From assembly GCA_051047955.1 (NCBI GenBank), contig JBPGPT010000010.1, positions 62,001 to 126,000 on the forward strand: a DNA stretch of 64,000 nucleotides. Direction: 5' to 3'. The translations under genes and the position numbers were made by a program. The notes under the pieces are model-generated. The model saw only the letters and a program-made list of their open reading frames with translations. It was not told the origin of the DNA and ran no database searches. The first letter of the stretch is position 1; each line of letters opens with the position of its first letter. This DNA comes from Cystobasidiomycetes sp. EMM_F5. Its lineage: Eukaryota. This document shows, in pieces, positions 4,958 to 64,000 of the stretch.

Positions 4958-6543
4958 ATGTTTCTTCCGCTGGAAATGCTGTGGTGCGCCTTGACCTAGC
5001 AGAAGTGCCCGTTCGTCTGGCCAATCTTCGCGTCTTTCGCGTTATTTAGCCAATTGGTACTGTCCTACGAAACATACAAAGCCCTAAAAGCCGCTCCGCC
5101 TGCACGCAAGCGTAGAAAAGCTATCGAAGAGGCCCTTGGCACGACGGCATCTTCGCAGCATGCCGAGCAAGCACGAAAACGCCGTTTGAAGGTTATGATC
5201 AAGGCGTGGATCGTATATGTATGTCGCTGGCCGCGCATTGGAAAGAGCTTGACTTATATGCTTCTATAAAGATCATATGTCTGCGTCTAGAGTTCCTCGT
5301 TGACTACATCTGCGGATGGTGGCTCCCGCTGTACGGCACTTTGAGGTTCCTAACAGTCCTGGTTTTTCTTTTTCTGCACAAACAGGTACGCTCCCTTGCA
5401 CTCTTCTCGTGGAGGTTAGATGACTCATGCGCACCCAAGACATCAGAGGCAGCCTTTGCAGCCTTCATCGTACCTTGCCTCAAGCCATATGAACGCGTTT
5501 TGGATACCGTCTTATACGTCTCCAGTGAAGTCCTAGACATCAGCACATATATCATCGGCTCGCTTCTTTGGCTCCTTTGGAGTCCTTTCCAACAGATATA
5601 CCGCAAAATCCTGCAATTGCAACAACGCGTGCGACTGTTATTGACAAACAAGACAGCCATATCTACAGATTCTGTATCCAATGATGCGAGCGATGGTGCT
5701 ATAGTCACCAAAGAAGCAAAAGAATGCCTACCTCGAAAGACGCCCCGGCCTCGAAAGGTCGCAAAGCCACGCTTCTCGCAAATAGCTAGACCTCATATGC
5801 CGGGCCATCTTGTAGCAGAAGGTGTCTCTTTTCCACCAATACAGACACGTCTCCAGCCTGCCGAGCGCTCTTACGATCAGCTACCAGACTTTCGAGACGC
5901 CATGGACCGTGCACAGGCAGCTTTCTACGAAGCCGAGAGTCCTGTTAGGCGCAAACGTAGTCCTCATGCGGACATTCAGTCAGTCAATTCGACGGATGCA
6001 GTACTTGTTCTGCGAGAAGGCGAGGAGGATGCATCGACTCTGACTCTTCCGCGGCCGAGCAGGAAACGGCCGACAACCGAGAGGCCACCGGAAGGTATGA
6101 CCAGTTCGCCAAAGCGTCGACGCACTGTACCCAACAACACATCGGTCGAGAAGGGACAGCATTCGAAGGCATCGAAAGCGTTGATGAAGTTGCCGACCAC
6201 AAGCGCAGTCGGGAAACGGAAAGCGACAGTCATTGCGAAGGAAGCCGAGTATATTTCGCCTGCAACGCGCGTCACACGTACGAGAGTAGAGATCCCTTCT
6301 CGCGCGGAAGATATTCCGATAGCTGCCTGTGCACCGGCTACTACCACATCACGTTCGAATGGCACACGACCACCTGTTCCTGTCGCACTTAGCGGTACCG
6401 CCAAAGCCCACGGAGCAGTTGCCGTAACGCGGGAAACACAAGCTGCACGTCATGCCGCTTTGGCTGCTCGAAAGCAGCAAGTAAAACAGTCAGCGGCCGC
6501 AGATACGGCGAGCGCTGTTACAAAGCGAAAGAAACGGAGCTAG
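4958..6543 (+). CDS. TB2/DP1/HVA22 (REEP-like) membrane protein with long basic disordered tail
   Basis: YETYKALK, KAWIVY, EFLVDYICGWWLPLYGTLRF, FIVPCLKPYERVLD resemble the HVA22 domain; C-terminus ends in KRKKRS. Confidence 0.65.
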
Positions 6544-14797: not shown

Positions 14798-17700
14798 ATG
14801 CTCCATCAATCAACGTCTGGCTTCACGCCCCGCCCTCGCCCGCCCAGATCAAGGTCTCATCAGCAGACGTTGAACAGCGCGCCGCCAGTCACTTTGCACG
14901 GGGCAAACAAGGATATTTCAGAGATGGTCAGACAGAGCATTCTTGAAAGTAGGGACGTAGGCATCGTAGCACTGGACACTCCGCAGTATACGCCGCCCCT
15001 TGGACAGCTGGAACAGCCAGCCCTAAGCTCGAGCACCAGCCAAAAGATCGGCAAAGAAGTCATGTTGCCCTCGGGTGACAGCAACACTTCGCTACCACGC
15101 TCGTCCAGCCAGCGTAGTATACGATCACCTGAAGAGCTGGAAGAGCTACTATACCAAGCTCACAGAATCATCCAAGACCGCGAACGAGGTGAGTTTGCAG
15201 TCGAGCCGAAACGTCACGTGCGATTGATTCTGATTCCACACATCATCTGCAGACCTGACACTGGCAGCCTCCATTGGCAAGTCCTTGCTCGATAACAACA
15301 CTGCATTACGTGCCAAGCAGGATGCACTGCTCCAACGAGTTCGACGAACATCCATATCGACCCAGGCTAATCAGGATCTGTTTGATGCATACGCCGAAGC
15401 GAGAGCCGAGTTTATCGAAGGACGTCCGCCTAAGAGTCCACGCACCTCGATGGTGACTGCCTCTCCGTCCATGCACGGAAGAAGCTGGTCGAATGCATCG
15501 CAGCCTGCCTCTCAGCATGGTAGTCCCGTGCGACGCAAGATACTGTCGCCTACAAACTCTCCTAGAACAACCAGATCTTTCGTTTTTCGTCAATCTGGAC
15601 ACTTCCAACATTCTCGCGATGGCGGATCTCTTGACTCTGCGGCATCGTCAATGTATGATGCGCCAAGCTTGCGACAATCTTCCCGTTCTTCAGCGGAACG
15701 CAACGAATTGCGATTCTCTCAGCCAGCTAAGACACTGAATCTCCAGCAGCAGGCGGCTCTTTATATGCAGAATGCAGAACTGGAGGACAAACTTACGGAA
15801 TTGGAGAATGAGCTCAGTCGGGCAAATGTAGCGGGAAAGAAGAAGTTGCGAAAGCTCAACAAGGAGCTCTTAGGCTTGCGTAGAGAACTTGATGACGCGC
15901 ATCTACACAACATCGAGCTCGAACAGCACCTGCATGCCGGCAATGGCCATACGACAGTACACGAACGACAGAAATGGAGCGTAGACCAACACAGCAAGGA
16001 CAGCCGTGATAGTGCAGTGTTCGACGACTCCATCCGCGATAGTATTCACGACACAGCTGCAGTGCCCCCGGACAATGATACTGACAGTCCAGAGCCGACA
16101 CATCACGAAGGCGGTAACGCAAGTATGATCTCAGACTTGACAGAGTGCAGCTCTAGCAATAGCGTTTCATCCCAGACTCACAGCGGGCCAGAACTCGCGG
16201 CGTTGTTGGCCAAGGTCGAGGAGCTTCAGCAAGCCAATGCTGAGATGACTGCGGCACGGGCAACTGCGGAAGCAAGACTAAGCGAGGCTGCCCAGCAATT
16301 CGACGAGATGAAGCGAAAATATCAGTTCCTCGAAGACCGAGTGATTGAGGCTGAGATGCGAAGTCATATGGTCATCGGCTGGGAGAGTAGGCGACCTGCC
16401 ATCGAATGGCATCCCGAAGGCCAAACTGTGAGCTGGGTACATTTTGTCTTAGCGTCATTGTCACTGATGTAGTTCGACAGGACGGATTGGGCGAAAGTAC
16501 ATCTACCGTAACTTCTTTACCTCGTCGAGCGCTAGGTAACCGAGCTCTTGTCGAGCGTCATCGCCGTTTCTCTAGTCTATATGGAGCACCTCATATCGTA
16601 GAGACGGGTAGACTGTCAGCTGCGCAGCTTGCAGCTCACGACGGGTCGTGCCATCAAACACCCTTAAACACGGTACATACGCCGGAGAAGCGCTCTCAGT
16701 CGGTGTCTAGATCATATGGCGAACCTCAGTTAACTTCGCCTACAGCATCATCGAAAGCTTCCGCCCGGAAGTCGGGTAGCACCTTTCATGATGACTGGTC
16801 GCCAAAAAGTCATCCGGGCAATGTACTGGATGCCTTAAGGCGAGTAGAGGAGGACGCAGCGGCCATGCGAGAATTGGGAAAGATGCAGGCAAAGGTCCGT
16901 GATACTAGCGAGGCTAGCTTGAATAACGTCGAGTCTGTGGAATGGAATTGCGTTCAACCGCAACGCTCCCGCTCCGCTTCGGCAACGCCTTCGCAACCCA
17001 CCGACGCACATCCAACCTCGCCCACGAGCCCGGGAAGTCTTCTCCGTAAACTTCAGTGTGTCGCAAGCGAACTGCAGTGCGTACCTACTCAAAGAGATTA
17101 CGGCGCTGGAGACTATAGCGCCGCTTCTTCCCTTGCAACTATCGGCCAGCGTTCGCATGATGCGGCGCGGGCTGCACAGCAGATTGTGGCTGCCATGATG
17201 GCGCTCCAGCTGCATAAGTCCGCTGAAGCGCCACAGGACGCTCTCCTGCCGCCAGGACCACCCAGTGCCGAGGCGTACGAGTTGCTGGAGCAAGCGCTTA
17301 CGGATCTCCCGGTGGAATGGGCGGATGACGACATACGTCTCATTCGGCAAAGCCTCCTGCGCGACATCGAGGCCGGAGAGTCTGGCGATCGTAGGCAGAC
17401 TCAAGGAGGTCTTGCATGGGCCTACGTCGATACTGAAGAGGACAACGACAAAAACGATCCATGGAAAGACGAAGGAAAGGGCAGGCCTGCTTTGGAGAAC
17501 GAGAAAATTGCGAATGAGCGGGAATTAGCGGAAGCTCGTGCCGCGAGAAGACAGCGCAGGCTTGCTGAATTGGCATCTGAACTATTGCAAGAGGAGGGTC
17601 CTGAGTATGCTTCGTCATTCGTACGCGATGTGCCACTCCAGCTACTGCGTTTTGGTTCAATGGATGCTAGCGAGGACAATTCCGCCGAACTTGCAGCTCA

Positions 17701-17998
17701 ACAAGATGACGCGCTCGCGATGGAATATGACAACATTGACGCAGAATGCGCACAAGGAGCTTCCGGTACAGACTACTGGCCAGTCACGCGCAGAGCTCGC
17801 TACATGCCATCCGTAGTCGCAGTGCGTGCACGAACCGCTTCAGCAGACTATGTCAATTCTTGGCTACTTTGGTCGCGCTTCCTCACCGCGCTTACTGTAG
17901 CTGTTGCAGTCAGCGTATGGCGAGGTCCCGAAGTCGGGCTTGGTCTTCCTGCTCGGCGCCATGCTGGTCGGCAGTTCCCTCGCCAGCGACGTCCATAA
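14798..17998 (+). CDS. Large coiled-coil protein with CC1-box-like motif and C-terminal transmembrane anchor
   Basis: 3 exons (introns 15189-15252 and about 16428-16480). Spliced ERDLTLAASIGKSLLDNN; heptad segments; C-terminal WLLWSRFLTALTVAVAVSVW followed by a 25-aa tail. Confidence 0.75.
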
Positions 17999-28145: not shown

Positions 28146-30028
28146 TGCTGTCTGAAAATCATGGGACGAAAGCATTGCCGGGCTGCATCGAGCTTCGCAG
28201 ACTTACATGGGTGGAATGCAACAACCCCACGTTCCCGCCTGGCAGTGTCGCTGCGCGACTCAATCTGGATGTATGGCTGCAGATACTGAATCTTCTCAGC
28301 TGGCAAACGCACGACTTGAAAAACGTCAGCTTGACCTGTCGAGCTTTCTATCTGAGTCAGTGACATTGGTGGTAGGAGCGATAGCATGGCTTAGATTGAA
28401 TCTATCATCCAGTCACGCTCAGAATTGCAGTATGTCTCGATCTTGACACATACGACTTCAGCGAAGACGCTGTCGTCGAGACGCCAGACGACGATGATCA
28501 TATTGTGTCTCCTTATGTGTCACCTCGATGTCAATCAATACGCTTTCTGCGCTTCGCAAGCTTCGATTTCGAGTCTGATTTACTGCGGCCTGATTTGACT
28601 GGACTCCAAGGCTGGCTACTGGATCTTGTGCCACACTTGAACCCTTGGGCACGTCTGACCATAATCATCAATTTGATGGTTCCGTTCACAGGTGATTCCG
28701 CCAGCTTGGCTAGTATCCTAAGCTTTCTGTTTGGTCACCCTCACTTTGGATCAAGTCGCTTCATGATCCATATACGGACGTTCGAAAGTGACGCTGTACC
28801 CGAAGACGTTGCAGCAGCGATGTCAGGATTGATGACCTTCGACTCGGAGATACAATTGGATACACAGTACGACGAGCCAGACCCTGTGGATCTCTGCTGT
28901 CGCTGGCTGCAAGCCGGAGTACCGTTCGAGTTGTTGCGCTTATCCGGTGACAATCATATAGGGCTATATGGCGATCGGGGCCCAGGCTACGCTACTGCAA
29001 TGTGGTCAGTGACCGAAAGAGTGACATTGCGTCGCTGGCCCCTTCTAGATGGCACTGGAGGGGCCCCACGTCTGTCTGTGCTGCATTTAGACGAGCTTTC
29101 CGGCACCGAGTGTGCCAAACTCATGCAGACCCTTGTTGCGCCGCATCTAAGGTGTGTCAACGTCAAGCTACCCTTTGCGGACTTGAACGACTTTCTCGGC
29201 GCTCCGAGCAACCGTTGCCAAGTCGTGGGCGGATATCCCGGCTGTCCTCGCATCTCTTTGCTGAGCGTAAATCTTGGGCTGTTTGCAACTCTACCTCCAG
29301 ATGTGTTGAACGAAATTGGACAGAAGTATGCCACTTGGAGGGTACAGTCAACACAGCGCGGAGTGGAAGGCATGGTCTGTCTCACTTCGGAACTCCGGCT
29401 CTTGTCCCAGACGCTGCAGTATCCCAGCTTGTCCGCGTTTCGAAATGACCTCGTACGTGTAAAAGTCAAATACGACAGTCGCATCCATACTCTCGCCACC
29501 TTCTCGAAGCAGCCACTGTCATACGATTTGCTCCGGGTTTTCTGGGTGGATTTTCGGTCATTCGTTACAGCTGCCGGTACCGAACTCGACGCCCTCATGC
29601 TCACCGCAAGCGAGCAGCTGCGACGTATATCTGCGCCTCAGATGGTTGAGATAAGACTCGTAGTGTTTTTTGTGCCCAAACCATTGATGGAGAAGATCTG
29701 CCGACTTGTATCCGAAGCGATTCCTGTACTCAGACAGAATGCCATCTCATTACGGAGGATCGACCTATTTGGCATACTTCAGACAATGTCTGCGGAAGAA
29801 GCTCGGCAACTGACCGTTGATCTGAGAACGCGTCTCTGGCACAAAGGAATAAGACTTTCGCTCGGCTCGGACGCAGATGGGATGTCTGTCAAGTACGATG
29901 AGGAAGAGGAAGACGACGATGAAACACGACATCCTATTCTCCTCCTCAACAAAGGGCTCAAGGCACAGCCAACGTCAGACGATTTCCCCGTGGAACACTT
30001 GCCAGAGAAATTGCATGCACGCTTGTAA
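28146..30028 (+). CDS. F-box-like domain protein
   Basis: RLNLDVWLQILNLL..DLKNVSLTCRAFY (F-box), spliced over an intron at about 28356-28412 into the long ORF 28505-30028. Start codon uncertain. Confidence 0.65.
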
Positions 30029-32335: not shown

Positions 32336-32580
32336 CAACTCACCTGCGGCTTGGCTGGCAGAACAGCGTCGCCGTATGCAGCAGTTTTCAGAGATGTATC
32401 GTCCAAAGCTGTCCCGATATCCAGCTGGGTGTACGGATTCAAGCTCGAAGCGGCCCCTTATACGCCGGCAGAGGCCTGATCAAAGCTCAATCGTCCAAGT
32501 AGCCGCCGTGGAAGACACAGAATTTTGCCAGACTCGTCTTGCTTTTCATTTCACTCACACGCCTGATTGCACTCCAACAC

Positions 32581-35297
32581 ATGTCCCGCTCTCCCTCGCA
32601 GCTCCCGCCCGACCTCGTTCTCGTCACTGCTCTCTCGATCGACTCGCTGACGCTGAGACCAGCTCCGTGGGCAAACACTGGCAAATCTCAGCCAGCTCTC
32701 CTCGACATCTACATCTCCACTGACGTGTCCGCAGCGGGAGCTTCGGAAGATCTTACAAAGAGCATAAACTATTCCTTCATTTCAAAGGGACTTCGAAGTT
32801 TCTTCAGTCAACCAGCACAGACAGAGAGAGTATTTGATGTGCATGAACTAGCATCCACAGCTGCACAAGCCTGTCTGTATCATTTCGACACTCCTCTGCA
32901 AACCATCCAACAGATTCGTATAGTCGCAACACTCCCAGACGCGCTTCTCCACGGCGGAAAGCTGTCATCGAGTGCTACCCGTACATATAGCGATTATTTC
33001 GTTCAAGACAAGCATATCACTATCCTACCTTCATCCTCAAACCTTCGTCTTGACAACCTTCTCATCGAAGATCTGCAAATACCCACCATTCTCGGACTGA
33101 ACGACTGCGAAAGAGAGATTGAGCAGCCGCTCTGGGTAACGGCAGAGACTTGGCCAAACGACAGCGGAGTATTAGACAGTTCCAGTATGTCTTGGTGTGC
33201 AAAGACTCTGCAAGACACGATATGGCAGGTCCGTTACAATGATCTGTTCACAATTCACATGTCTGACAGGCGTCGATAGCACGTCCGCAAGACTAACCCG
33301 CTGCTTCTAGAGACGTTTTCTCCATCGTTGGCACAAGCCATCGTTGCGCGAACAGGCACGCCCAAAGTAAGGGTACGACTGGACAAGCCGAAAGCGAATC
33401 TGTGGACGAGAACGACGGGCGTACAAGTCACGCGGACAAAAGACTACTTTCTCCGTAATCCGCAAGCTGTACATGAGTCGTTCAGGACACTCGTCTCCAG
33501 ATCGACAGATAACGCAGGGATAGCATCTTCTGATAACATCGAGAAGAGTAGGCCTAGAGCCGATGGAGAACTCAACCACCCTCATACCGCTTATATAGCC
33601 ATCGGAGCAAATGTCGGAGATAGAGCGAAACACATCCGTCGAGCATTGAGATATCTGAACGATGCTAGACTGATGCAGTCAAGCTCGTCAGCCGGCACAT
33701 CCAAAGCTACGGAAGCATTCATAGCCGGTTCGATGGCTAGCACGCCAGTAAAGTCAGAGAATGACACATCACCCGTCAATGCGTCACTCCTATCACAAGC
33801 GCTGCAGAAGACGGCCAATGCTGTCAAGAACGTTGCGGGAAATGCCAATGAAGCCGGAAGGGTGGCCAGAGTTTCTGATTCAAGTTTCTTGTACGAAAGC
33901 GAGCCGATGTATGTGCTCGACCAGGATCGCTTTCTCAATTGCGTAGTCAAGGTATGATTATCACAACTATGCCCTACGTCGTGCAATGCTAACATGCCTC
34001 GTAGATCTCGACATCTCTTACCCCACAGCAGCTCCTCAAGCTCTGCAAGTCCATCGAGGCGCATATTGGACGTCGCAAAACAATCAATAAAGGTCCGCGG
34101 GAGATTGACCTCGATCTTTTACTATACTACGAAAATGGGTATCAACCCGTCATCCTGCGTGACGATGAAGTCGACCTTACGCTCCCTCACCCACTCATCT
34201 CCGAACGCGAGTTTGTTCTACGCCCGCTGGCCGACATTGACGAAGGACTCACAATTCCACAAAGCGGAGCATCCATCCGAGAATTGCTTGAGCGTCTTAT
34301 TGCCAAGACTGCGGGGCAGCCCAGTCAGTTGCGACAAGTAACGCCTGTGTCACTGTCGCAAGACACAAACGAGCCTTCTTTACCACTCCATCTATCGCTC
34401 TCATCACGGACACTCATCATGTCAATTCTAAATGTTACCCCAGACTCCTTCTCAGACGGAGGATCTTACTCATCCATCGATTCAGCGGTAGCAGCCGCAT
34501 TGGAGCACGCCAGAAGCGGAGCAGACATTATTGATATCGGCGGTGTCTCCACTCGACCTGGATCACAGCATGTCACTGAAGAAGAAGAATTAAAACGCGT
34601 CATTCCCGTCATCGAAGCTATTCGCGTTTCTGGGAGTGGTGTTCTGCTAAGTGTGGATACGTATCGAGCGAGCGTAGCCCGCAAAAGTATCGAAGCTGGA
34701 GCGAATATCATCAATGACATCTCCGGCGGTCTGCACGATCCTCTCATGCTCGAAACGGTCGCAGAGTTGGATGTTCCGTTCATTCTGATGCATATGCGGG
34801 GCAAGCCAGAAGAAGTAAACGTAGCTGCACACGCAGAATACGATAACGATGATCCTGTCAGTGGGGTCCGCAGAGAGCTGGCTGAAGCGGTCCGTAAAGC
34901 ACTTCATGCGGGTATCAAAAGATGGAATATTATTCTGGATCCAGGTATTGGATTCTCCAAGAACTTACAAGGCAATCTAGCTCTACTTCGCGCTCTACCT
35001 CAGGTCACCGGCAGAACATCATCAAATAACCTACTTTTACCGTCCGCCAGCTCACAGCCGGCGATGGATGATGCGGATTCTGCTCTTCTTCGCGGCTTTC
35101 CGGTACTAGTCGGTCTATCCCGTAAGAAATTCATCGGCACAATCACGGGACAATTAGACCCTAAGGAACGTGAGTACGGAAACGCCGCTCTGCACGCTAT
35201 AGCCATAGCCAATGGGGCCAACATCATCCGCGTCCATGACGTGCGAGCGGCAAAAGACGCAGCGGCTGTCGTCGATGCTCTTTATGGACGAACGTGA
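32581..35297 (+). CDS. FOL1: Trifunctional folate synthesis protein (DHNA-DHNA-HPPK-DHPS)
   Basis: DHNA DLTKSINYS and ILGLNDCEREIEQ; HPPK AYIAIGANVGDR, LYESEPMY, GPREIDLDLL, PHPLISEREFV; DHPS ILNVTPDSFSDGG, ILDPGIGFSK, GLSRKKF, IIRVHDV. Confidence 0.96.
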
Positions 35298-46532: not shown

Positions 46533-48232
46533 ATGCCTTGCCTTTCGAAACGGACCACTGAGTTGGCAAACAGTGCGGATCCGAGGCTAGAAACGCTGAT
46601 TCGGCGATATGGACCGCAAGTGAGGGCGAGCATCTATCTGATGATGCGGATTGCTGAAAGTAACACGCTAGTATTCAGAAGACTATCCGGAGGGAGTGAT
46701 CAACCTCGGCATTGCTGGGAATGTATGCGGATTGACACTCGCATTCGGCATGCACTGAACAAATCCCATGTAGACTTTAATGGCTGATTGGACGTTGGAG
46801 CATTTCAAAGAGCTCCCACTGACACGTGCAGATCTAACATACGGCGACGCTATTGCTGGATCGAAACGGTTGTACAAAGGTCTGGGTCGATTGTTCGAGA
46901 AATATTTCCATCCGATAACACCAGTGACGGAAGAGCATATGGTGTACGGAGTAGGTCTTAGTGCTTGCATCGATCAGCTCGTTCAGAAAATCTGCGATCC
47001 TGGCGATACTATCCTTATATCCAGGCCATATTACAGTCAGTCAGTACACCCTTGCCGATCCGAACCAGGAGCTGATCTTTGATGGACGGTAGACGGCTTT
47101 GACAGAGATGTATCGGCACGTTCTTCCGCTCGTATGGTCGGCGTAGACATCGGGAACGTGGATCAAACAAGTCCGGATACGCTAGATGCGTTCGAAAGGA
47201 CGGTAAAGCTAATGAAACACAAGAACGAGCCGATGCCCAAAGCCATTCTATTATGCAATCCTCATAATCCTCTTGGTCATGTCTATCCGAAAGAGACAGT
47301 ACTCGCATATTGTCGTTTTGCAGAGAAGCACGATTTGCATTTGTGAGTATTGCCTCTGCCTTTACTCCTTCACATGCCCAAAGTTGGCTCATGTGGATAC
47401 GACAGGCTAGTGGACGAGATATACGCTCTGTCGCTCTTTGAGAATAAGGGTGAGTTATGCTTTCGAGGCCTGTTCATCCACTCATAATACTGCTGTTACT
47501 AGACGTCCTGTCTAGACCGACTTTTCAGTCTGTACTCTCGATGGATGTTTGGAAAGAAGCGCAGTGCAATCCTGCAAGAGTGCATGTGCTCTATGGGTAC
47601 GAGAGGTTTCCGCTTTTTTTCAGCATACGCTAACGCATACGTTTGCAGAATGTCCAAAGATTTCGGTGCGAACGGGTTACGCGTTGGTGTAATTGTATCG
47701 CAGCACAACCCGGAACTCATAAAGTCATTCGCGGCGAGCGCGATACTCATGAAGCTCTCCTCGCCATCGGTACGTACTCAGCACACACAGGCCGCTCCGG
47801 GTGGTGTCTGACATCGGAATATGACAGGACGCATTATGGTCTAAGATTCTGCTCGATGCTGAACTGCTCTCCTCATACCTCATCAAAGCACACGCGGCCG
47901 CATCAGACGCACTCGAATTTGCAGTAAGCTGGCTCGACAAGATGCGCATTCCATACGCCAATCCTTCAGCTGGCCATTTCATATGGTGCGATTTCACCGG
48001 CTACCTCCCTTCGCACGACAAGAGCGGCAAAACACTAGCTACAAAAGCTGAAAGGGAATGGGAGCTCTGTGTACGGTTGCTGGAGGCCTGTAATGTCTAT
48101 ATTGGACCGGGGTCTCTCTATCACGCTGTGGAACCGGGCTGGTGCAGGCTTACTTTCACTGTCGAAAAGGAGTATATTGCTCTTGGATTCCAGCGGATGG
48201 AGAAGCTGTTCCAGCAGCTGGCGTCGAGTTAA
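46533..48232 (+). CDS. ACC-synthase-like PLP-dependent aminotransferase (class I/II), copy 1
   Basis: LTYGDAIAGS, RPYY, LCNPHNPLG, DEIYALS, PLP-Lys MSKDFGANGLRVG, PGWCRLTF; multi-exon. Confidence 0.88.
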
Positions 48233-49210: not shown

Positions 49211-50957
49211 ATGACCCAGCAAGCAGAGCTGCCTCCTTCCTCGAATGCCCCTACGCTGTCGAAAAGAGCCATCGAGCTCGGCAAGAGCGCAAGTCCGATA
49301 TACGAGGCACTGTTTGCGAAACTGTTTGGCAAGCAGGTGAGACGATAGCACATATGATGGTGTTTATACATAGTCTAACATATCAATAGTATTCTCCCGA
49401 GAATCCAGATGGCCTGCTGAACCTCGGTGTGGCGGAGAACGTAGGCTATGTCATCATATCCTCCTTTACAACGGCTGAGTGAAGATACACCACGACAGTC
49501 TCTCATGGCAGAGTGGACGCTCGACACGTTCAAAGAAGTTCCCTTGACGCGAGCGGATTTGACATACGGAGACGCGCTAGCCGGTTCACAAAGACTATAC
49601 AAAGGACTAAGCAGGCTATTCGAGAAATACTTCCACCCCATCACACCAGTCACAGAGAAGCATATGGTTTGCGGCGTGGGCGTGAGCGCTTGTCTCGATC
49701 AGCTCGTCGAAAAGATTTGCGATGTGGGCGATACTATCCTGATTTCAAGGCCTTACTATAGTATGTCCAGCATTTTCATGTCTTCCATATCTTTCCACTA
49801 ACGTGTTCGTCAGATGGATTCGATGGAGACGTATCCGCGCGCTCAGCAGCCCGACTTATCGGAGTAGATCTTGGAGAAACAGACCAAACGAGTCCGAAAA
49901 CGCTAGACGCCTTCGAAAAAACAATCAATGATATGGAAATGAATGGCGAAAAACCACCGAGAGCGATTATATTATGTAATCCTCATAATCCGCTTGGTCA
50001 TATTTATCCGAAAGAAACAATCATCGAATACTGCCGATTCGCGGAAAGACACAATATTCATCTGTACGTATACTGTGCGGCCGAGTGTCGCGAACCAATC
50101 TGAAACTATATGGCAGTATTGTTGACGAGATCTACGCACTATCTTTGTTCAAGAATAAAGGTCAGGGCGATTTCTTAAGTTGGGGACATGACACACGCTG
50201 ACTTGCGTGACGGTAGACGTCGAGACGCAAATTCCCTTCCAATCTATACTCTCCATCGATGTGAAGAAAGAAGCTCAATGTAATCCAGCCAGAATCCACG
50301 TTTTATACGGGTAAGTCCCGCTTCGGCTTCTTTTTGAGGGTGTGTTGCTGAAATGAGTGAAACTCAGCATGTCCAAGGATTTTGGTGCCAATGGCTTGCG
50401 CATCGGCGTCATGGTCTCGCAGCATAACAAGGACTTGATCAAGTCATTCATGTCGAGCGCTATCCTAATGAAGCTTTCTTCGCCTGCGGTAGGCACTTGA
50501 GTCTCCGTATTATACTTCTGTATTCTGATGAGTGATGCTTCAGGATGCTTTGTGGTCCAAGATCCTGCTCAACGATGATCTGCTATCGTCATACATCGTG
50601 AAAGCACAAAGTCGAGCAGCAGACGCCTTAATATTCGCCGTAGAATGGCTTGACAAGATGAAGATTCCGCATTCCTATCCTTCAGCTGGTCATTTCATAT
50701 GGTGCGACTTCAGCCAATACCTGCCTCACAAAGACAGGGACGGGAAGAAACTCAAGACGGCTGCTGAGAGAGAGTGGGAACTGTGTAGGCAATTGCTGTT
50801 TGATCATAATGTTTATGTCGCGCCCGGTAGTATCTACCATTCGACAAAGGAAGGCTTTTTTAGACTTACATTTACGATACAGAGGGAGTGGATGACGGTG
50901 GGATTGGCAAGAGTAGAGAAGTTGCTGAAGAAGTTGAAGGACGAGTCCTCCGAGTGA
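49211..50957 (+). CDS. ACC-synthase-like PLP-dependent aminotransferase (class I/II), copy 2
   Basis: NPDGLLNLGVAEN, LTYGDALAGS, LCNPHNPLG, DEIYALS, MSKDFGANGLRIG, GFFRLTF; same intron positions as copy 1. Confidence 0.9.
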
Positions 50958-51045: not shown

Positions 51046-52296
51046 TCATGAGATTTGCGTCTCCGCTTTTGCTGATTCTCGCTTCTGCTGCCAGGCTCTG
51101 CCGTAGCGCTTCAGCGATTCGTAAGTTGTCATACCAATTGCATTTGCCGGTACCTACAACCGCCGTCAGCTTCTCAAGCCACCGTTCATAAGCCATCCGT
51201 ACTCACGGAATAGAATACTCGGATGCCAGTTCCTCGCAAGAATGCTTTCGCACCCCCTTCTCGCCATAAATGCCTGACGATGTTGCCGATAGTCCCTTCG
51301 CTACTTGTCGCAAGCCCTTCATTCGTGATCTTACCCCCACTCGTCTGCCACCGGGTTTGCACGATATCTACCGGATTCGTTGCGATCGTGCTTATCGCAC
51401 ACGCGCCAACAGAGCAAGCCGTATATGTTAAAGTAGTCTTCGAGAAAAAGTCGTGCGTAGGCGGAGGTTGGTCTTTCGATGGCCCTTGTGCGGCGACATA
51501 ATCTGGTATATATCGTGTCTTGAAGGATTCGTATAACATCCAGTATATGGATACATAAGGTCCGAATTGTGCTAGAGAGAAGAAATAGCCGCGCCATACA
51601 CCGCGATACCCTTCGTCCCGCCAGATTTGCTTGATTAGCGTGGGCGCAGATTTCGTCTTTTCTTTCCCTGTTTGTAGGCGCTGTTTCAGAACGTCCATAG
51701 GTGTCCTACAGGGAAGTAAATCAGTAATGTTTGATATGGCAGTATTGTCCGATACTCACCATATCGCTCCAGAGGCCACTGTGATGCAGCATCAGCGGAA
51801 TGTCAGTAATATTCGGAAAAACGAAATCGCAGCGCTTACGCTCCGCAGCCAAAGCAGCAGAGACAATCAACGGCGCTTGTGCCAGTAACGTTGGCGGTTT
51901 CCCATCTGGCGTCTGTTTCAGTAGATATGGTCGGAACCCATTTTTACACGCTTCATAGGTTGTCAAGTAGAAGCATGATCCTGGCACGCTGGTAGCTATC
52001 TCAGCTGAGATCCAGGATCCCATTGCATGCGGACATACTTGAAAGCTAAAGCAATTGGAAGACCAGCATATAATTGTGTCCACGGTTTTGGGATGATCTG
52101 CCGTAATCTAGGTCGGCCGCTGCCTTGTTTCGTTTGTATCCGGACTCTTAGAGTGTCGACTACATATTCGTATGTGTCAGAGCGCTTGCACTGATATGAA
52201 GCTCGAAGCTCCCTCACGAGGATGTGTTGACAATCTTGCCACCAGCGCACTGCCAGAAGAAGCGACAATCGTTACGCCGTCCAGCCCGCCCGACAT
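51046..52296 (-). CDS. Mitochondrial carrier family (SLC25) protein
   Basis: Three PX[D/E]XX[K/R]X[K/R] signatures: HP|xDTLRVRIQ, TPMDVLKQRLQ, NPVDIVQTRWQ. Confidence 0.92.
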
Positions 52297-52714: not shown

Positions 52715-53787
52715 TCATGAAATACCTTCCGCGAAGAGATTGAAAGGCTCAAAGTAGCCTGAGTCTACGCGACTACAATTATCGTAGCTATCGAAGTTTT
52801 GCAATTGCCTGAGGTTCAACGTCAGCTTTTCCGGCGTTAGGCTCAAGCAGTTTGCACTCACAAGGCGAAATCCTCGATGACCGGAATATCCTCATTGTCA
52901 CTGCTTTGCATTGCCACCCTAGGCTTTTTGTACAAGGATGGCTTCCGTGAGCCTTTGCTTGCAGGTCTTTCTGCTTTTGATGGCTTCTGATACGGTTGGG
53001 CTTTTGTCCTCGCAGCCGACCGTTGGCGAGGACGGTGCGGTGGCGTGGACGGAGGGGGTGTAGGCGATGAGCGGGAGGAGCAGGGTGAGGAAGAGCTGTC
53101 GACGAGTGAAGGAGGGACGGAGTATTCCTGTATGAGTTCGTCGACCCAGTCACCGACCTTCTTGCGCTTCGGTCCAGCAGAAATAAAGTCGCGTACAGCT
53201 TGCACGGCTTTGCGCGCTTCCGGGTCGACCATCGTTGACAGGACAGGGTCGTCTACTTGTTGCATGAAATGGTGCATCGTCTCTTTGTCGCTCTCGCCGT
53301 ACTTGCGGAATAGGTCATTCCAGCCTGAGCGCTTTCGTTTATTGACGAACCAAGTAGTGAGCTGAGAAGGGCTATGGTCCGGTATCGACTGCAACAGCCA
53401 ATCGCGTCCTGCATCCGATACATACGGCCATTCCAAATGAGCTATAAACCAGGAGGACCAAGCGCAGTAGGAGTCGACACCTCCCCTTTGCGAAGCGGAA
53501 GAGGTTAGGGTCTGTTGGGTTTCATTCCTATACTTCCGTTCTGCATCGACGCAGATGTTTTGTGCCAAAATGTACGATTTAGCGATGGTTCTAATGTTGT
53601 TGAGTATTTCGTTTACGGCGGACAAGCCATCAATGTCAGGGCTCGAAACGATATGATGTAACCAATCTGCCTCCCAGCGTTTCAGTCGTAGTGATATATC
53701 CGATAGAGCATAGCCAGCTGGGATCTGGCAAGTGTCGTGGTGGATAGCTAGTAGCCGATTAATCGCGTCGTCAATGCTGGTGCACAT
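52715..53787 (-). CDS. HD1: HD1 (bE-like, TALE-type) mating-type homeodomain protein
   Basis: WFIAHLEWPYV..QLTTWFVNKRKRSGW; N-terminal helical variable domain; intron 52809-52861 and short last exon. 3' end tentative. Confidence 0.88.
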
Positions 53788-53961
53788 GGGTCGGTTGTGT
53801 GGTCTGATTGTAAAAGAAGACTTCAGTTCGGAGGGCGCATCGAAATGCGGGTGAGGCCCGTGCATACAAAAGCCATTCAATCGCCTGTTATATTCGCCAC
53901 AAGCCGGAAAGGTGCAGATGAGTCTCTTACCGTACACTGCATTCAGCATTCTGACAAAACA
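53788..53961. promoter_or_regulatory. Short bidirectional promoter between HD1 and HD2
   Basis: 174 bp between the inferred divergent ATGs; typical basidiomycete HD locus arrangement. Confidence 0.6.
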
Positions 53962-55478
53962 ATGGAAAACATTCAACCGTGGTGGGACGTTCTTTCGATT
54001 TGCAGAGAGGCCCTCGATCTGTTCGGGCCTCTCAGTGCTGGTCCCGCATACTCACCCCAAGAGGTTGATGAGCAAATGGGAATGATGCGACTTGATCTAG
54101 CTGCAAGGATCGATTCTGTTACCGGCATATACCTGGCAGAAGGCGTGGATTTGCGGATGGCCATTGCACTAAACGCGGAATATCTGGCAGCGCTGTCTAC
54201 TGCAGCCGACCAGCTTGAGCAAGCATTCGCAGCAGCATTTAGGAATGTCAGAGGCGACGAGGGGCAGCTGCATCCAATCAGAAAGGCTCTATGGAGTAGA
54301 TACGTGGAGGCTTTCGAACAACTGAAGCAAGATACTGCCAAGGATCAGTTGTGTGCGATTAAGAAGCATCTGTCGCCTAGCGTAAAGCCGCCATGCGAGC
54401 CAACAGCCGTCCTCGAGACAGCCTACTCTCACTGCACACACCCTACTCCCGCCGAAAAGGAGCGTCTCGCTCGAGCTTGCGGCCTAACTGCTCGTCAGGT
54501 TAATACATGGGTGCGCTCAGGCCATTCTCCGACCGTTAGAAGCTTTTGTCAATGACTGTTATACCATGCTTCATGCCACTTCAGTTTGCAAATCATAGAC
54601 AGAGAAAGGGCGCCATCAAGTCGGGAAGCGACAAAGCAGCATCCTCGAAAAAGCGGCACACGAGCACGCCCCGCAAATCTTCCTCGGCTTCGGTGGCGTC
54701 ACTCGCGTCTTCGAGCTCGAGCATCCAATCTCTTTCATGGTCCGCAGCGAACTCTCCCTGTCCATCTCTTGCTACTTCCGTGTCCAGTTCCTCTCTTCCT
54801 ACATTGTCAAGATCATCCTCCAACACTTCTTCATGGACAGAATCCCCACCAAGAGATACCACGCCGGACGTGTCATCATCTTTCATCAACCCTGAATATT
54901 TGGACCTGAGCTACTCCAACTCTTGCATTCAAACAATCGAGCCTGCCCTTTCCAGCGAGGGAGCGCACCATGATATTCTCTCTCGTATATCGCCGTCAAG
55001 TAACTGGCTTAATCACCTTCACACGTCCGATGTGGATGCCAGTCACAAGGACAGCATTCAAAGCTACGATGTATCGCAGTGGTCCACCTTTGGTTATGTC
55101 CCCCGTGAAGAAGTCGCTCCTCTCGCTTCTACCTCGTCGAACATGTTCGACCTTGGTAACAGCTGGGCCGCCCCAGCGGAAGGCGCTGCGGCGTGTGCCG
55201 TGCACGGCAGCAAAGATAGCACTGATCAAGACTACTGGACATGTCTCATGCAGTCCGTCGGCATTGATACGGAGGGTACAGCTTTTCTGCCCATTGATTC
55301 GAGCCTCGCATACGGTAGCGGGACTCTCCCTCTACCCGGACCCACGACCGACAATAGTAATACGCTTGACAACTTATTAAGCGATATCGATGCTACACTG
55401 TCATGGTTCCAATGCCCTCCTCTAGCCCAGTTGGAAATGGCCCCGCAATCCGTTCCAGTTCGCCCTAGTCAGCCGTAG
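53962..55478 (+). CDS. HD2: HD2 (bW-like) mating-type homeodomain protein
   Basis: TAVLETAYSHCTHPTPAEKERLARACGLTARQVNTW|FANHRQR (intron 54511-54584 between W and F); Ser-rich and acidic C-terminus. Confidence 0.88.
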
Positions 55479-60205: not shown

Positions 60206-63200
60206 TCACAATTTCGCGCTTTCATCGTCGTGCAACTTTTCGACGGCAATCACTGCCACTTCCCCTGTCCCTGCGAGAGGTCCGGCTGCGGCCTGTTGTG
60301 TTTCGACCGGCCTAGCAGGTAGAGCAGGCGGCATAGTGTGAGTAGACGCGGCTATCTCAGATGACGCGACCTTTTCTTTGTCGATGTTTATCGATGTTTC
60401 TGCAAGTATAGGATGCGAATGAAGGTCCGTCGCAGGAGGAGGCACGTCCGCTTGCGTAACGACCACCGAAGCGACAGCAGGATTTGGTGAATCTCCGATG
60501 ATATTCTCCTGTTGCTGCAAGCGAACAGTGCTGGCTAGTAGTGATGACGAGACAGCTTCAGGCCGCATTGGCAGAGCAGGTGGGGTAGACGCGCGTAGCT
60601 CTTTTGCGGCGGACGAGCCAGGCGAGGTACCTCCACCATTGTATGAGCCGCTTGAACTCGCGGCGAATCTCCGAGATTCGTCCATTCCGGGGATCGCCAT
60701 CATAGCAGCCGGGCGATAGCCCGTCATGTCTGCCGTCCCAGACTGCCGCCTGTTGTGAATAGAATGTGCAGGATGCACAGGTACAGCTGACGGCGGTGGT
60801 ACGCGTCGAATGGCCGTAGGATTTGCCGGAGACGGGGAAGAAGGCAGTGTAACGGCTTCTGCCGTAGAAATCGAGGTAGTGGGCAGAGCTATACTAGGCT
60901 GGAAGTGGGAGAAGTTGCTTGGCGAGGTTGATGTTTGTGACTCGGATTTGGCATTCCCATCTAGACTGCCTGCACGTTCTGGCCTCGGCGAGCCATGTTC
61001 GTTGGCCTTGCGTGCCATACTAGACATGCCACCCAGCTCAGGAGTTCCGTTGAGATTACCGAACGAGCTGTGTGAAAGGGTCTCCTGCACAGCTTCCGCG
61101 GAGCCGTCGGGTTGAGTAAGCTTTGCGCTCTTGTATGCTTGCCAGCGGTTGCTCCATTTATTCATGGCATCTTTAGCTTGAGTCATCCCTTGATTGACAC
61201 TGGCCTGTATGGCTTGTTTATCGCTCGCTTTCGCCTTCCAGGCGTTGAGCAGCTGACTCGTGGTGTGAGTGGTAGTAGCTGAGGAGGAAGCAGAACTCGA
61301 AGCTGTCTGAGAAGTCGTACTGGGAGCAATTGATCGCAAGCTGGATGCGACCGATTTTTCCGATGTTCGACTTGCTACTGAGGGCGCGATCGACGGTGTC
61401 GGAGATGTTGTCCGCTCAATGAATTGTGCATCAGCGATAATCACATCATTCAAAGTGTCAGTCCCCGTTATTTGCGTTTTCGTGGTCGGTGCAGATACTG
61501 AAGAATCGGCGCCAGGAACATTCACTCCAGCTGCATTCTCGGGGTTTAGGGCAGCAGGGAAGGTTGCAGGGTGGGTATCCGGTACTTTACGTACACCGAT
61601 AGATTCTTCCGATGACGATGAAGCCCGAGCTCTGCCGTTTTCGAGTATGCCACGGAGGCGGTCTGCAGCCGTATCTGAAGCATCGCCACTGACTGTACTT
61701 AGCGTATCAGTGTATCGTGTGGATGACGAAGCTAGACGATACGACCGGCTTGGCTCATCCGCCTTCAGGTCAGTACGTGACTTCCGGGGTCGCAGGTCTT
61801 TATTGATTAGCGAAGGTAGATTCGGCTCGCTGTCTGCTGCATGAACTTTTGTTTTGGTAGGCGAGGATGAAGATGTGGTCCCGAACCATGCTCGCTTCCG
61901 AATTGGATCGCTTTCCTTCTCTGCACTGCCTTCCGGCGGCGCAGATTGAGTGCTCTTCAATGAGGCATCAGACGTTCTTCGAGCACTAGGTGTGTGTTGG
62001 TGTAGATTGCCGGTATCTTTCTCGTCGCTGAGCTTCGGGTTTGGCACTCCAGGTGGTATGCGTGGGGTTTCCTCATCCGCGTCGAGATCGTCTGTCGGAG
62101 GTCGAGTCTCCTCGGAGAGAGGATCGCGTACCTCCCTCAAGCAGTCTCCAAATATTCCAGCCCGGTGAAGGTATGGCTTGGTATCGAAAAATGCGATATC
62201 ATCCATGTTTGGCATGACGATGGACTCGGCAACCTGTAATTGAATATATGTCAGCCTATAAAATACTTTGATGGCTGACGATTGCCATACAAGCTCGCGT
62301 AAACGAGATTCCATTGGCTTCGTAACCATTGACCACTTGATCTGCCTAGTCGAAACGACTGGCTCGACGCTAATGACCATTCTCGGCGCATGAGTAAAGG
62401 AAAACCACAGTCGATTAGAAGGTGGAGGGTTGATCTTGAAGACCATTGTGCCTTCAAGCTCTTTCAAGACTACAGCCAGTACCAAACTAACACTATATGA
62501 TTTGAAGCGGGTTCCAAGATCTGCAAATCCATCCCGTAAGTGTGAGTCATTATTCCTTGATAGCGACGTTGCTTACTCAAGGTAGCAACTGTACCTATAG
62601 TAATACGAAACTCGCCGACATACTTGACATGCATTTCCATGCTTGCCGAACCATCAGACTTGAGCTCGCGTAGTAACGGCTTGCTGAAGAATGGTGTTGT
62701 GACTCCGACGTTGGCTTCCTTAACGACAATATCGCTCAAGAAGCTGGGCTTGTTGACTTTGTTGAGCTTCCGGACTAGCTTGCGGATAATGTAGTTCTCC
62801 ACAGCAGATGTTCCTGGCAAGTCCAGTCGCATCAGCCAACCATACAGTTCCGTGTGGAGGTGAAAAAGAGGCGTACTATACACAGAAAAAAACAAGCGGC
62901 CGATCATGGCATTCAGCCAGCGGGTCGGTATAGGATCCGGTTGTTGGTCAATAGCATCAACAAGGCGAGTCATGTCCGTTGGATCAAACAGCAGCCTGTC
63001 CTTGGCCAGATCTTCGGGATGTTCCAGCCGTGAGGCATTCAGGAGGTGATGATACCAGTCTTCTTTCTGGTGCGTGTATGTAGTCCAAATGTACCAATTC
63101 TGGTTCTGCCCGTGTTCCGATGTGTCTGCGCCTGTACCAGCATTTTGACGATGCAGCGGATTGGAGCCATTTGATAGATACAAAGGATCGCGCGGTCGCA

Positions 63201-63813
63201 GGCATATCGCGTTGCGCTTCATGAAAAGCTCTCCTTCTATCAGTCCTTCCGGGTAAATGACGACATCACATAAAGTAAGCGGGATGGCTGCGCATATTTC
63301 CGCTTCGTGTTCGTCAGAATACAGGTATAGCGCTGTATCCTTCAAAACAGCGTAGTAGCGGTCCTTGTACTTTGCTCTTTTGGGATCTAGTTTACGGGAT
63401 TCCATAAATGACCGAGTAAACGAGTTGATGGATTCCATGTAAGTCCCTTTCGCAGCCGGTATATCCGCGGCGACACTGCTAGAAGAAGCTGCATTCGGTG
63501 CTGCCCCATTGCTAGCGACTTCAGTCGCATTTGCTACCGCCGTGGCAGCAGCAGCCGAATTGAATGTCCGGCGAGCTATTATCCAACCACGCGGAGCTCT
63601 ATTGGGGCTGCCCGCATCTTTCGTTACAGACGTAGCATCGAAGCCATCGTCGACCTTGTCCTTGCCGGTGAGAAAGTCACGGCCTCTGTCAATTGCAGGC
63701 CGAAACGACGTATGCCGGTAGTAGATGTAGACGAGCGACGCTGCAAGCAGGATGGGGAGAAGCGTCACACCGCCAAAGATGTAGGCCGCAATGAGAGTCC
63801 ATGGCAGTCCCAT
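60206..63813 (-). CDS. NVJ2: Nvj2/TEX2-like TM-PH-SMP lipid-transfer protein
   Basis: N-terminal TM AYIFGGVTLLP; PH YYAVLKDTALYLY..KEDWY; SMP TRWLNAMIGRLF, KINPPPSNRLWFSF, VMPNMDDIAFF; long disordered tail. Confidence 0.9.
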
Positions 63814-64000
63814 CGCATGTGTACAGTCATGGGCTGGTCATTTGGTAGTGACCTGTGAGACATGGACAGGCGTGGCAAACGAGCAATGACGGATTGGACC
63901 GTAGGCGTTGACACGCTTTGTACGGATTATGCCGGAGCAGACTCTTTCGTCTCTCATTATGCATTGCGAATACAACTACTACTCCTCGAACGTTGGACTC

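Follow-up and report, generated by a model that had tools for sequence, protein, structure and literature searches.

The 64-kb stretch of DNA analysed here (contig JBPGPT010000010.1, positions 62,001 to 126,000), referred to as the window and numbered from its first letter, possesses two homeodomain genes arranged head-to-head, HD1 on the minus strand and HD2 on the plus strand, and the reading frames of both are open. The pair is very probably a basidiomycete mating-type locus of the HD (homeodomain) type. The start codons (ATG 53787 for HD1, ATG 53962 for HD2) have 174 bp between them, a short-spacer divergent arrangement as in basidiomycete HD loci, and the two genes form a compact island of 2.8 kb with the following parts.

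52715 to 52808, minus strand: putative HD1 exon 2, 31 codons, comprising 30 residues (..SGYFEPFNLFAEGIS) and TGA; an open frame if spliced, for a total of 339 amino acids (aa)
52809 to 52861, minus strand: putative HD1 3′ intron, 53 nt, with GTGAGT, a CTGAC branch site and CAG; the in-frame TGA lies partly within the 5′ splice site
52858 to 53787, minus strand: first, and possibly only, coding exon of HD1, 309 codons and TGA; its start is aligned to the N-termini of 24 relatives
52861 to 53118, minus strand: Ser/Pro-rich disordered tail of HD1 (confidence score pLDDT below 60), with motifs KPSLY and DIPVIEDFAL
53119 to 53316, minus strand: post-homeodomain helical region of HD1, residues 158-223, 28% mean identity to relatives, model helices 156-223; KRKK at 53158-53169
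53317 to 53475, minus strand: TALE-type homeodomain of HD1 (Homeobox_KN), residues 105-157; WFVNKRKRSGW at 53320-53352
53476 to 53787, minus strand: N-terminal helical domain of HD1, residues 1-104, presumed to serve in dimerisation and specificity (helices in the AlphaFold2 (AF2) model, least conserved part, predicted interface with HD2)
53788 to 53961, no strand: spacer between the start codons, 174 bp, a presumed shared divergent promoter to judge by the arrangement
53962 to 54510, plus strand: HD2 exon 1, 183 aa ending ..GLTARQVNTW; N-terminal helical domain, homeodomain helices 1 and 2 and the start of helix 3
54511 to 54584, plus strand: HD2 intron, 74 nt, phase 0, GTGCGC..TTCAG (GT..AG), between W and F of helix 3
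54585 to 55478, plus strand: HD2 exon 2, 297 aa (54585-55475) and TAG (55476-55478); remainder of helix 3 (FANHRQRKG), basic stretch and Ser-rich tail

An initial annotation, made from the letters of the stretch alone, had described divergent genes in which a homeodomain follows an N-terminal domain, and this was correct wherever open reading frames (ORFs) and Pfam can bear on it. The ends which it gave to the locus fared differently, as 55478 is exactly the HD2 stop while 52715 corresponds only to the stop codon that would end the putative HD1 exon 2.

The open frame of HD1 runs from 54051 down to the TGA at 52858-52860, and its third ATG (53787, MCTSIDD..) gives a protein of 309 aa. This protein matches the TALE family Homeobox_KN of Pfam (E 8.8e-7, 29.1 bits with a cut-off of 24), which together with the position of WFVNKRKRSGW bears out the TALE-type HD1 proposed initially. 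With the canonical homeodomain spacing as reference for the residue counts in both proteins, HD1 has 33 residues (counted from the sequence) from the F of helix 1 to the W of helix 3, four above the canonical homeodomain, and its WPY loop aligns with the NPYP loop of PBX, features of the TALE-like HD1 class. The basic cluster KRKK may be a nuclear localisation signal. A database entry for HD1, P0001 (363 aa), begins at an upstream ATG (53949) only 12 bp from the HD2 ATG, that is, 54 codons (53788-53949, minus strand) above the start supported by the relatives, and ends at the unspliced TGA. No full-length HD2 protein was seen among the database matches, and gene calling blind to introns seems to have shaped both P0001 and this absence.

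HD2 has a total of 480 aa. In this gene Pfam detected the Homeodomain family in exon 1 as read by itself (E 1e-6, 28.9 bits, cut-off 22.9) over profile positions 12-47 of 57, the match stopping at position 47 because the intron sits there. FANHRQR, which opens exon 2, completes what is thereby a canonical homeodomain of the HD2 class, with the canonical 33 residues from L16 to W48 (counted from the sequence), and WFxNxR is present in both HD1 and HD2 once the 74-nt intron is removed from the latter. An unspliced reading meets a stop after 14 codons, and the intron length does not divide by three, so that the ORF track does not show the helix-3 motif; this confirms the initial annotation in its claim that an intron splits W and F of helix 3 and hides the motif. 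Exon 1 also matches the homeodomain of Exd (E 5e-4) and MATa1 (E 0.14) and aligns with six relatives from the related loci described below. These loci were the source of the HD2 relatives, as no match to longer proteins at E ≤ 0.01 was found with exon 1 among 2113 candidates. In exon 2, Ser, Thr and Pro together make up 37% of residues.

With respect to the 3′ end of HD1, the putative intron resembles candidate introns of an RSE1-like gene at 41-45 kb in the window, these being 50-62 nt in length, beginning with GTGAGT, GTGTGT, GTATGT or GTACGT and terminating in CAG. The residues of the putative exon 2 gave no significant tblastn match in the 17 related loci, where a single weak match on the same strand (L003/L004) falls past the stop of that HD1, and the related HD1 in L004 is one uninterrupted ORF. 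From its sequence the 3′ intron is plausible, and HD1 would be of 309 or 339 aa.

The HD1 protein was scanned with HMMER (phmmer) against 1.84 billion representatives, with 103 relatives found at E ≤ 1e-3, 34 at E ≤ 1e-10 and two at E ≤ 1e-30, the last being the entry of the window itself and P0002 (37% identity, nearly full length). Only five relatives were present at E ≤ 1e-25 (33-37% identity). An alignment of HD1 with its 24 best full-length relatives (A1, 25 sequences) has the consensus PYRxWFLxHxxxPYP...TWFxNxRRRSGW, in which residues P121, W146, N149, R151, R153 and W156 are invariant. Homeobox_KN was detected in all 25 members of the alignment, Mating_N in five and Ustilago_mating in one. 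Mean identity of HD1 to the 24 relatives is 13% for residues 1-104, 40% for the homeodomain, 28% for the stretch that follows and 22% for the tail, and the variable N-terminal domain of the initial annotation stands in so far as variation between species is concerned. The tail motifs KPSLY and DIPVIEDFAL align with P0002, P0003, P0005, P0006 and P0015; the five nearest relatives form a subgroup, sharing with HD1 the motifs KPSLY and D[IV]PV[IF].

The sole named relative of HD1 is hypothetical protein OIO90_001016 of Microbotryomycetes sp. JL221 (26-29% identity), and a profile search with A1 scored 8000 candidates and gave three matches, including one with a name. Neighbours of HD1 in the Atlas (language model), with scores of 0.90-0.92, are described as ‘Homeodomain transcription factor HD1 family protein’ and ‘Homeobox KN/Ustilago B locus mating-type protein’. 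The top clusters carry Mating_N and one carries Ustilago_mating, and all of the top four Atlas sets near HD1 are labelled ‘commonest Basidiomycota’. The protein is thus homologous to recognised HD1 mating-type proteins. Concerning the host, the Basidiomycota sets of the Atlas, the one named relative from the Microbotryomycetes (Pucciniomycotina) and the intron-rich eukaryotic genes of the window point to a basidiomycete; the Atlas result for the FOL1-like neighbour was uninformative for taxonomy.

In an AF2 model computed from A1, HD1 (mean pLDDT 79.5) has N-terminal helices at residues 5-20, 26-48 and 52-100, mostly with pLDDT above 84, followed by a three-helix homeodomain (108-154), conserved helices to residue 223 and a disordered tail. 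The top Foldseek matches of the model in the PDB are TALE homeodomains, namely PBX1, Exd, TGIF1 and MEIS1, the last fitting at 0.9 Å over 48 residues; MATalpha2 fits the model at 1.0 Å over 50. A PDB sequence search with HD1 gave no match below E 0.15.

Prediction of a complex between HD1 residues 1-160 and HD2 residues 1-183, run without supplied alignments, resulted in interface scores (ipSAE) of 0.79, 0.79 and 0.74, the best of three controls scoring 0.00; in calibration the mark for this score was reached by 51 of 78 solved complexes and by 2 of 108 mismatched pairs. The partners have pLDDT of at least 73, and at least 90% of contacts are common to the runs. The predicted interface lies between HD1 residues 19-95 and HD2 residues 2-26 and 66-136, these being the N-terminal domains and not the homeodomains. 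The model supports an N-terminal architecture competent for dimerisation. As the pair folded comes from one haplotype and the predictor does not distinguish family members (close cousins of the true partner passed in 10 of 12 calibration cases, making it blind to self versus non-self), this support is for a dimerisation capacity at the family level and does not address self versus non-self.

Searching metagenome contigs with the A1 profile gave 17 loci encoding HD1 relatives (L001 to L017), the best of which is 36% identical to the HD1 of the window, with no near-identical locus present. HD2 was sought in these by tblastn and with a small hidden Markov model of HD2 homeodomain segments. Thirteen of the 17 (L002-L010, L012-L014 and L016) have an HD2-like ORF that lies upstream of HD1 in the opposite orientation; the contigs of L001, L011 and L015, in which HD2 was not detected, extend no more than 510 nt upstream, while in L017 none was found in the 1533 nt upstream of HD1. 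Nine of the 13 HD2-bearing loci (L002-L010) have a GT..AG intron between W and F in the HD2 homeodomain, seven of these introns measuring 52-76 nt and those of L002 and L006 being roughly 90 nt by eye. The start of HD2 exon 2 gave weak tblastn matches in L002, L003, L004 and L006, located one intron length below the exon 1 match, with an offset of 76 nt in L003 and L004. In the remaining four loci (L012, L013, L014 and L016, 95-97.5% identical throughout) WFQNRRNR is uninterrupted, which independently confirms the spliced HD2 product of the window.

There is also a second intron within the HD2 homeodomain of L002 and L006, slightly upstream of the W|F intron and after ..NTKQ. L009 and L010, with a helix-3 intron of 76 nt, share approximately 73% DNA identity, flanks included, with L012, L013, L014 and L016, which lack it, a case of intron loss or gain between close taxa. 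The possibility that L009 and L012-L016 are alleles of one species was rejected, since their flanks too are only ~73% identical, indicating different taxa.

One gene next to the pair is a further common feature of these loci.

51186 to 52107, minus strand: mitochondrial-carrier gene directly downstream of HD1, a conserved neighbour outside the locus proper (Pfam Mito_carr, E 2.9e-28)

L002, L003 and L004 have this gene as well, likewise downstream of HD1 and in the same orientation as HD1 (tblastn E 4e-32 to 3e-27). The window therefore has an intact gene pair of assigned classes whose arrangement, HD2 intron and one neighbour are conserved in related loci.

The window has 358 stop-to-stop ORFs with a length of 70 aa or more, and in Pfam scans of all of these (batch thresholds E ≤ 1, 1e-5, 1e-3, 1e-3 and 1e-3) neither a second homeodomain ORF nor an STE3 receptor was found. 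A scan of the window for CAAX pheromone precursors identified two short ORFs only, both antisense within other genes. For 52 kb on one side and 8.5 kb on the other, the HD pair thus has no pheromone/receptor locus joined to it.

The two proteins are shorter than bE and bW of Ustilago maydis (HD1 309 or 339 aa, HD2 480 aa). Like the U. maydis b locus, in which bE is of the HD1 class and bW of the HD2 class (an excerpt of PMC10977897), the locus of the window has a divergent homeodomain gene pair with a short spacer and N-terminal domains before the homeodomain. A link between the two is also seen in the Ustilago_mating domain, carried by one of the 25 aligned HD1 relatives and one Atlas cluster, although the HD1 of the window has no match to it at E ≤ 1. 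According to the legend of Fig. S1 of PMC2916851, Sporidiobolus salmonicolor has divergent HD1 and HD2 whose 5′ regions are variable, and HD2 contains an intron; in the literature passages searched, this mention of an intron was all that turned up in relation to the W|F position. The pair of the window resembles those of Pucciniomycotina yeasts (S. salmonicolor, red yeasts) in its divergent HD1/HD2 and HD2 intron, with the sole named relative belonging to the Microbotryomycetes; it differs from them in that this relative is just 26-29% identical and that the five nearest relatives form a subgroup by tail motif.

With the Agaricomycete A locus (Mating_N, ‘mating-type protein beta 1’) it has in common both homeodomain classes in head-to-head arrangement, and Mating_N occurs in 5 of the 25 relatives, but the HD1 of the window lacks Mating_N and there is a single pair, not several. 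The usual neighbours at mushroom A loci are the genes for mitochondrial intermediate peptidase (MIP) and the beta-flanking protein; unlike these loci, the window gave no MIP or beta-flanking gene in its Pfam scans. In Saccharomyces cerevisiae, the MATalpha2 and MATa1 genes belong to different idiomorphs, and their products make contact via the C-terminal tail of alpha2 and the homeodomains. The window proteins resemble these (PDB 1yrn, 1akh, 1mnm) in being TALE-like and canonical homeodomain partners; however, the predicted contact in the window is between long N-terminal helical domains, and the sequence matches are not significant (E 0.14-0.6). The HD locus of Phaffia rhodozyma, as described in excerpts of PMC4915694, likewise comprises one divergent HD1/HD2 pair, which appears not to be linked to pheromone/receptor genes, but homothallism is documented for that yeast in the same source.

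In the excerpts of PMC2916851 and PMC10977897, HD1/HD2 pairs are divergent, only non-self subunits dimerise and the variable N-terminal domain is needed for heterodimerisation, with which the N-terminal interface predicted here fits. By analogy, after cell fusion the HD1 and HD2 proteins would bind via their N-terminal helical domains, and the heterodimer would enter the nucleus, with import through the basic cluster, bind DNA through its homeodomains and turn on post-mating (dikaryotic or filamentous) development. In a heterothallic species such pairing would be restricted to HD1 and HD2 of different alleles. For the window we infer the non-self restriction, the nuclear import, the target programme and the polymorphism in the species from such systems. 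The assignment to the basidiomycete b/HD locus, already made in the initial annotation, is backed by the domain classes, the family, the Atlas neighbours, the conserved arrangement and intron, and the predicted heterodimer.

A number of points weigh against this assignment. The evidence comes from one allele of one strain, while polymorphism is the defining property of a mating-type locus, and the searches for a second HD pair and for pheromone/receptor genes span the 64-kb window. The closest HD1 relative is only 30-37% identical. At its N-terminus HD1 has no match at E ≤ 1 to Mating_N (PF12731) or Ustilago_mating (PF05722), Homeobox_KN being the only family detected, and HD1 is therefore not filed under these two families although relatives of it are. 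No Foldseek match of HD1 in the PDB reached E ≤ 1e-3, the TALE homeodomains having E-values of 0.5-2, which may be because a whole query of 309 residues was compared with domains of ~50 residues. Finally, the complex was folded from a same-haplotype pair, which in a heterothallic species is expected not to bind.

This last point leads to a reading in which the genes are the same but do not act as a polymorphic self/non-self switch, the species being either primarily homothallic, with a self-pair that dimerises, or recently asexual with HD genes still intact. This reading is rather unlikely. The ipSAE of 0.79 for the same-haplotype pair, with 0.00 for the best control, is in keeping with self-dimerisation, although the predictor also passed close cousins of true partners. 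Excerpts of PMC4915694 provide a precedent in homothallic P. rhodozyma, where both genes of the single divergent pair are required, and yet state that basidiomycetes are mostly heterothallic. One HD pair in the window with no pheromone/receptor gene nearby would also suit a species of this kind. On the other hand, the N-terminal domains are the part least conserved between species, as expected under diversifying selection, a pattern which relaxed selection would give as well. As regards asexuality, most asexual red yeasts keep functional HD homologues (an excerpt of PMC3236058), so that intact genes do not prove sexuality; from their sequence, those of the window are consistent with retained sexual potential. 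A narrower form of the homothallic reading, in which the pair belongs to a deep, thinly sampled HD1 subgroup and its same-haplotype proteins truly bind each other, the organism then being a basidiomycete that is primarily homothallic through a self-compatible HD pair, is quite improbable.

HD loci with several pairs occur in Agaricomycetes. The pair of the window might accordingly be one of at least two HD pairs or sub-loci in its genome, comparable to the alpha and beta sub-loci of mushroom A loci, and would not then define HD specificity alone; three HD genes are mentioned for Agaricus bisporus in an excerpt of PMC8305134, and the rest of the genome lies outside the searched window. This, too, is improbable, as sub-loci are usually close together and no other homeodomain ORF is among the 358 of the window, while each of the related loci checked has one HD pair within ~5 kb of flank on each side. 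That two unrelated homeobox transcription-factor genes became neighbours by chance, with no role in mating, is highly improbable. Homeodomains are common and the Pfam E-values here are moderate (~1e-6), but Mating_N and Ustilago_mating proteins occur among the relatives, a contact between the two N-terminal domains is predicted, and HD2 and HD1 are head-to-head in 13 of 17 related loci with intron position and neighbour in common. The retention of the pair, the intron position and one neighbour across fairly distant relatives rules out chance juxtaposition. With the basidiomycete HD mating-type locus as the preferred reading, the pair is an ordinary one of known type on a sparsely sampled HD1 branch.

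The remainder of the window has an even G+C content (48-56%) and contains housekeeping genes, including an amino-acid permease (from ~56.0 kb), aminotransferase paralogues, APC10, RSE1/SF3b3-like, FOL1, BCS1 and UTP15, among others. Two aminotransferase class I/II genes lie in tandem on the plus strand (46686-48229 and 49445-50954), just upstream of the block formed by the mitochondrial-carrier and HD genes. They have a matching exon layout, two exon ORFs that were compared being 61-68% identical at the amino-acid level, and look like a local duplication. At 32503-35294 (plus strand) consecutive ORFs encode FolB, HPPK and pterin-binding (DHPS) domains in the layout of the fungal trifunctional FOL1, split by introns. 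There are also long ORFs (455-788 aa) without a Pfam match at E ≤ 1e-5, situated at 60209-63837 (minus strand) and, on the plus strand, at 28400-30025, 15234-17995 and 5116-6540.

Basidiomycetes use the HD locus as their compatibility switch after cell fusion, and the locus is expected in every sexual member of the group. The intact pair described here is a marker for strain typing, for determining the breeding system (bipolar, tetrapolar or homothallic) and for the search for a sexual cycle in this lineage. In addition, the W|F intron and the mitochondrial-carrier neighbour provide conserved landmarks for HD2 genes which have been missed or truncated by ORF-based or intron-blind gene callers.

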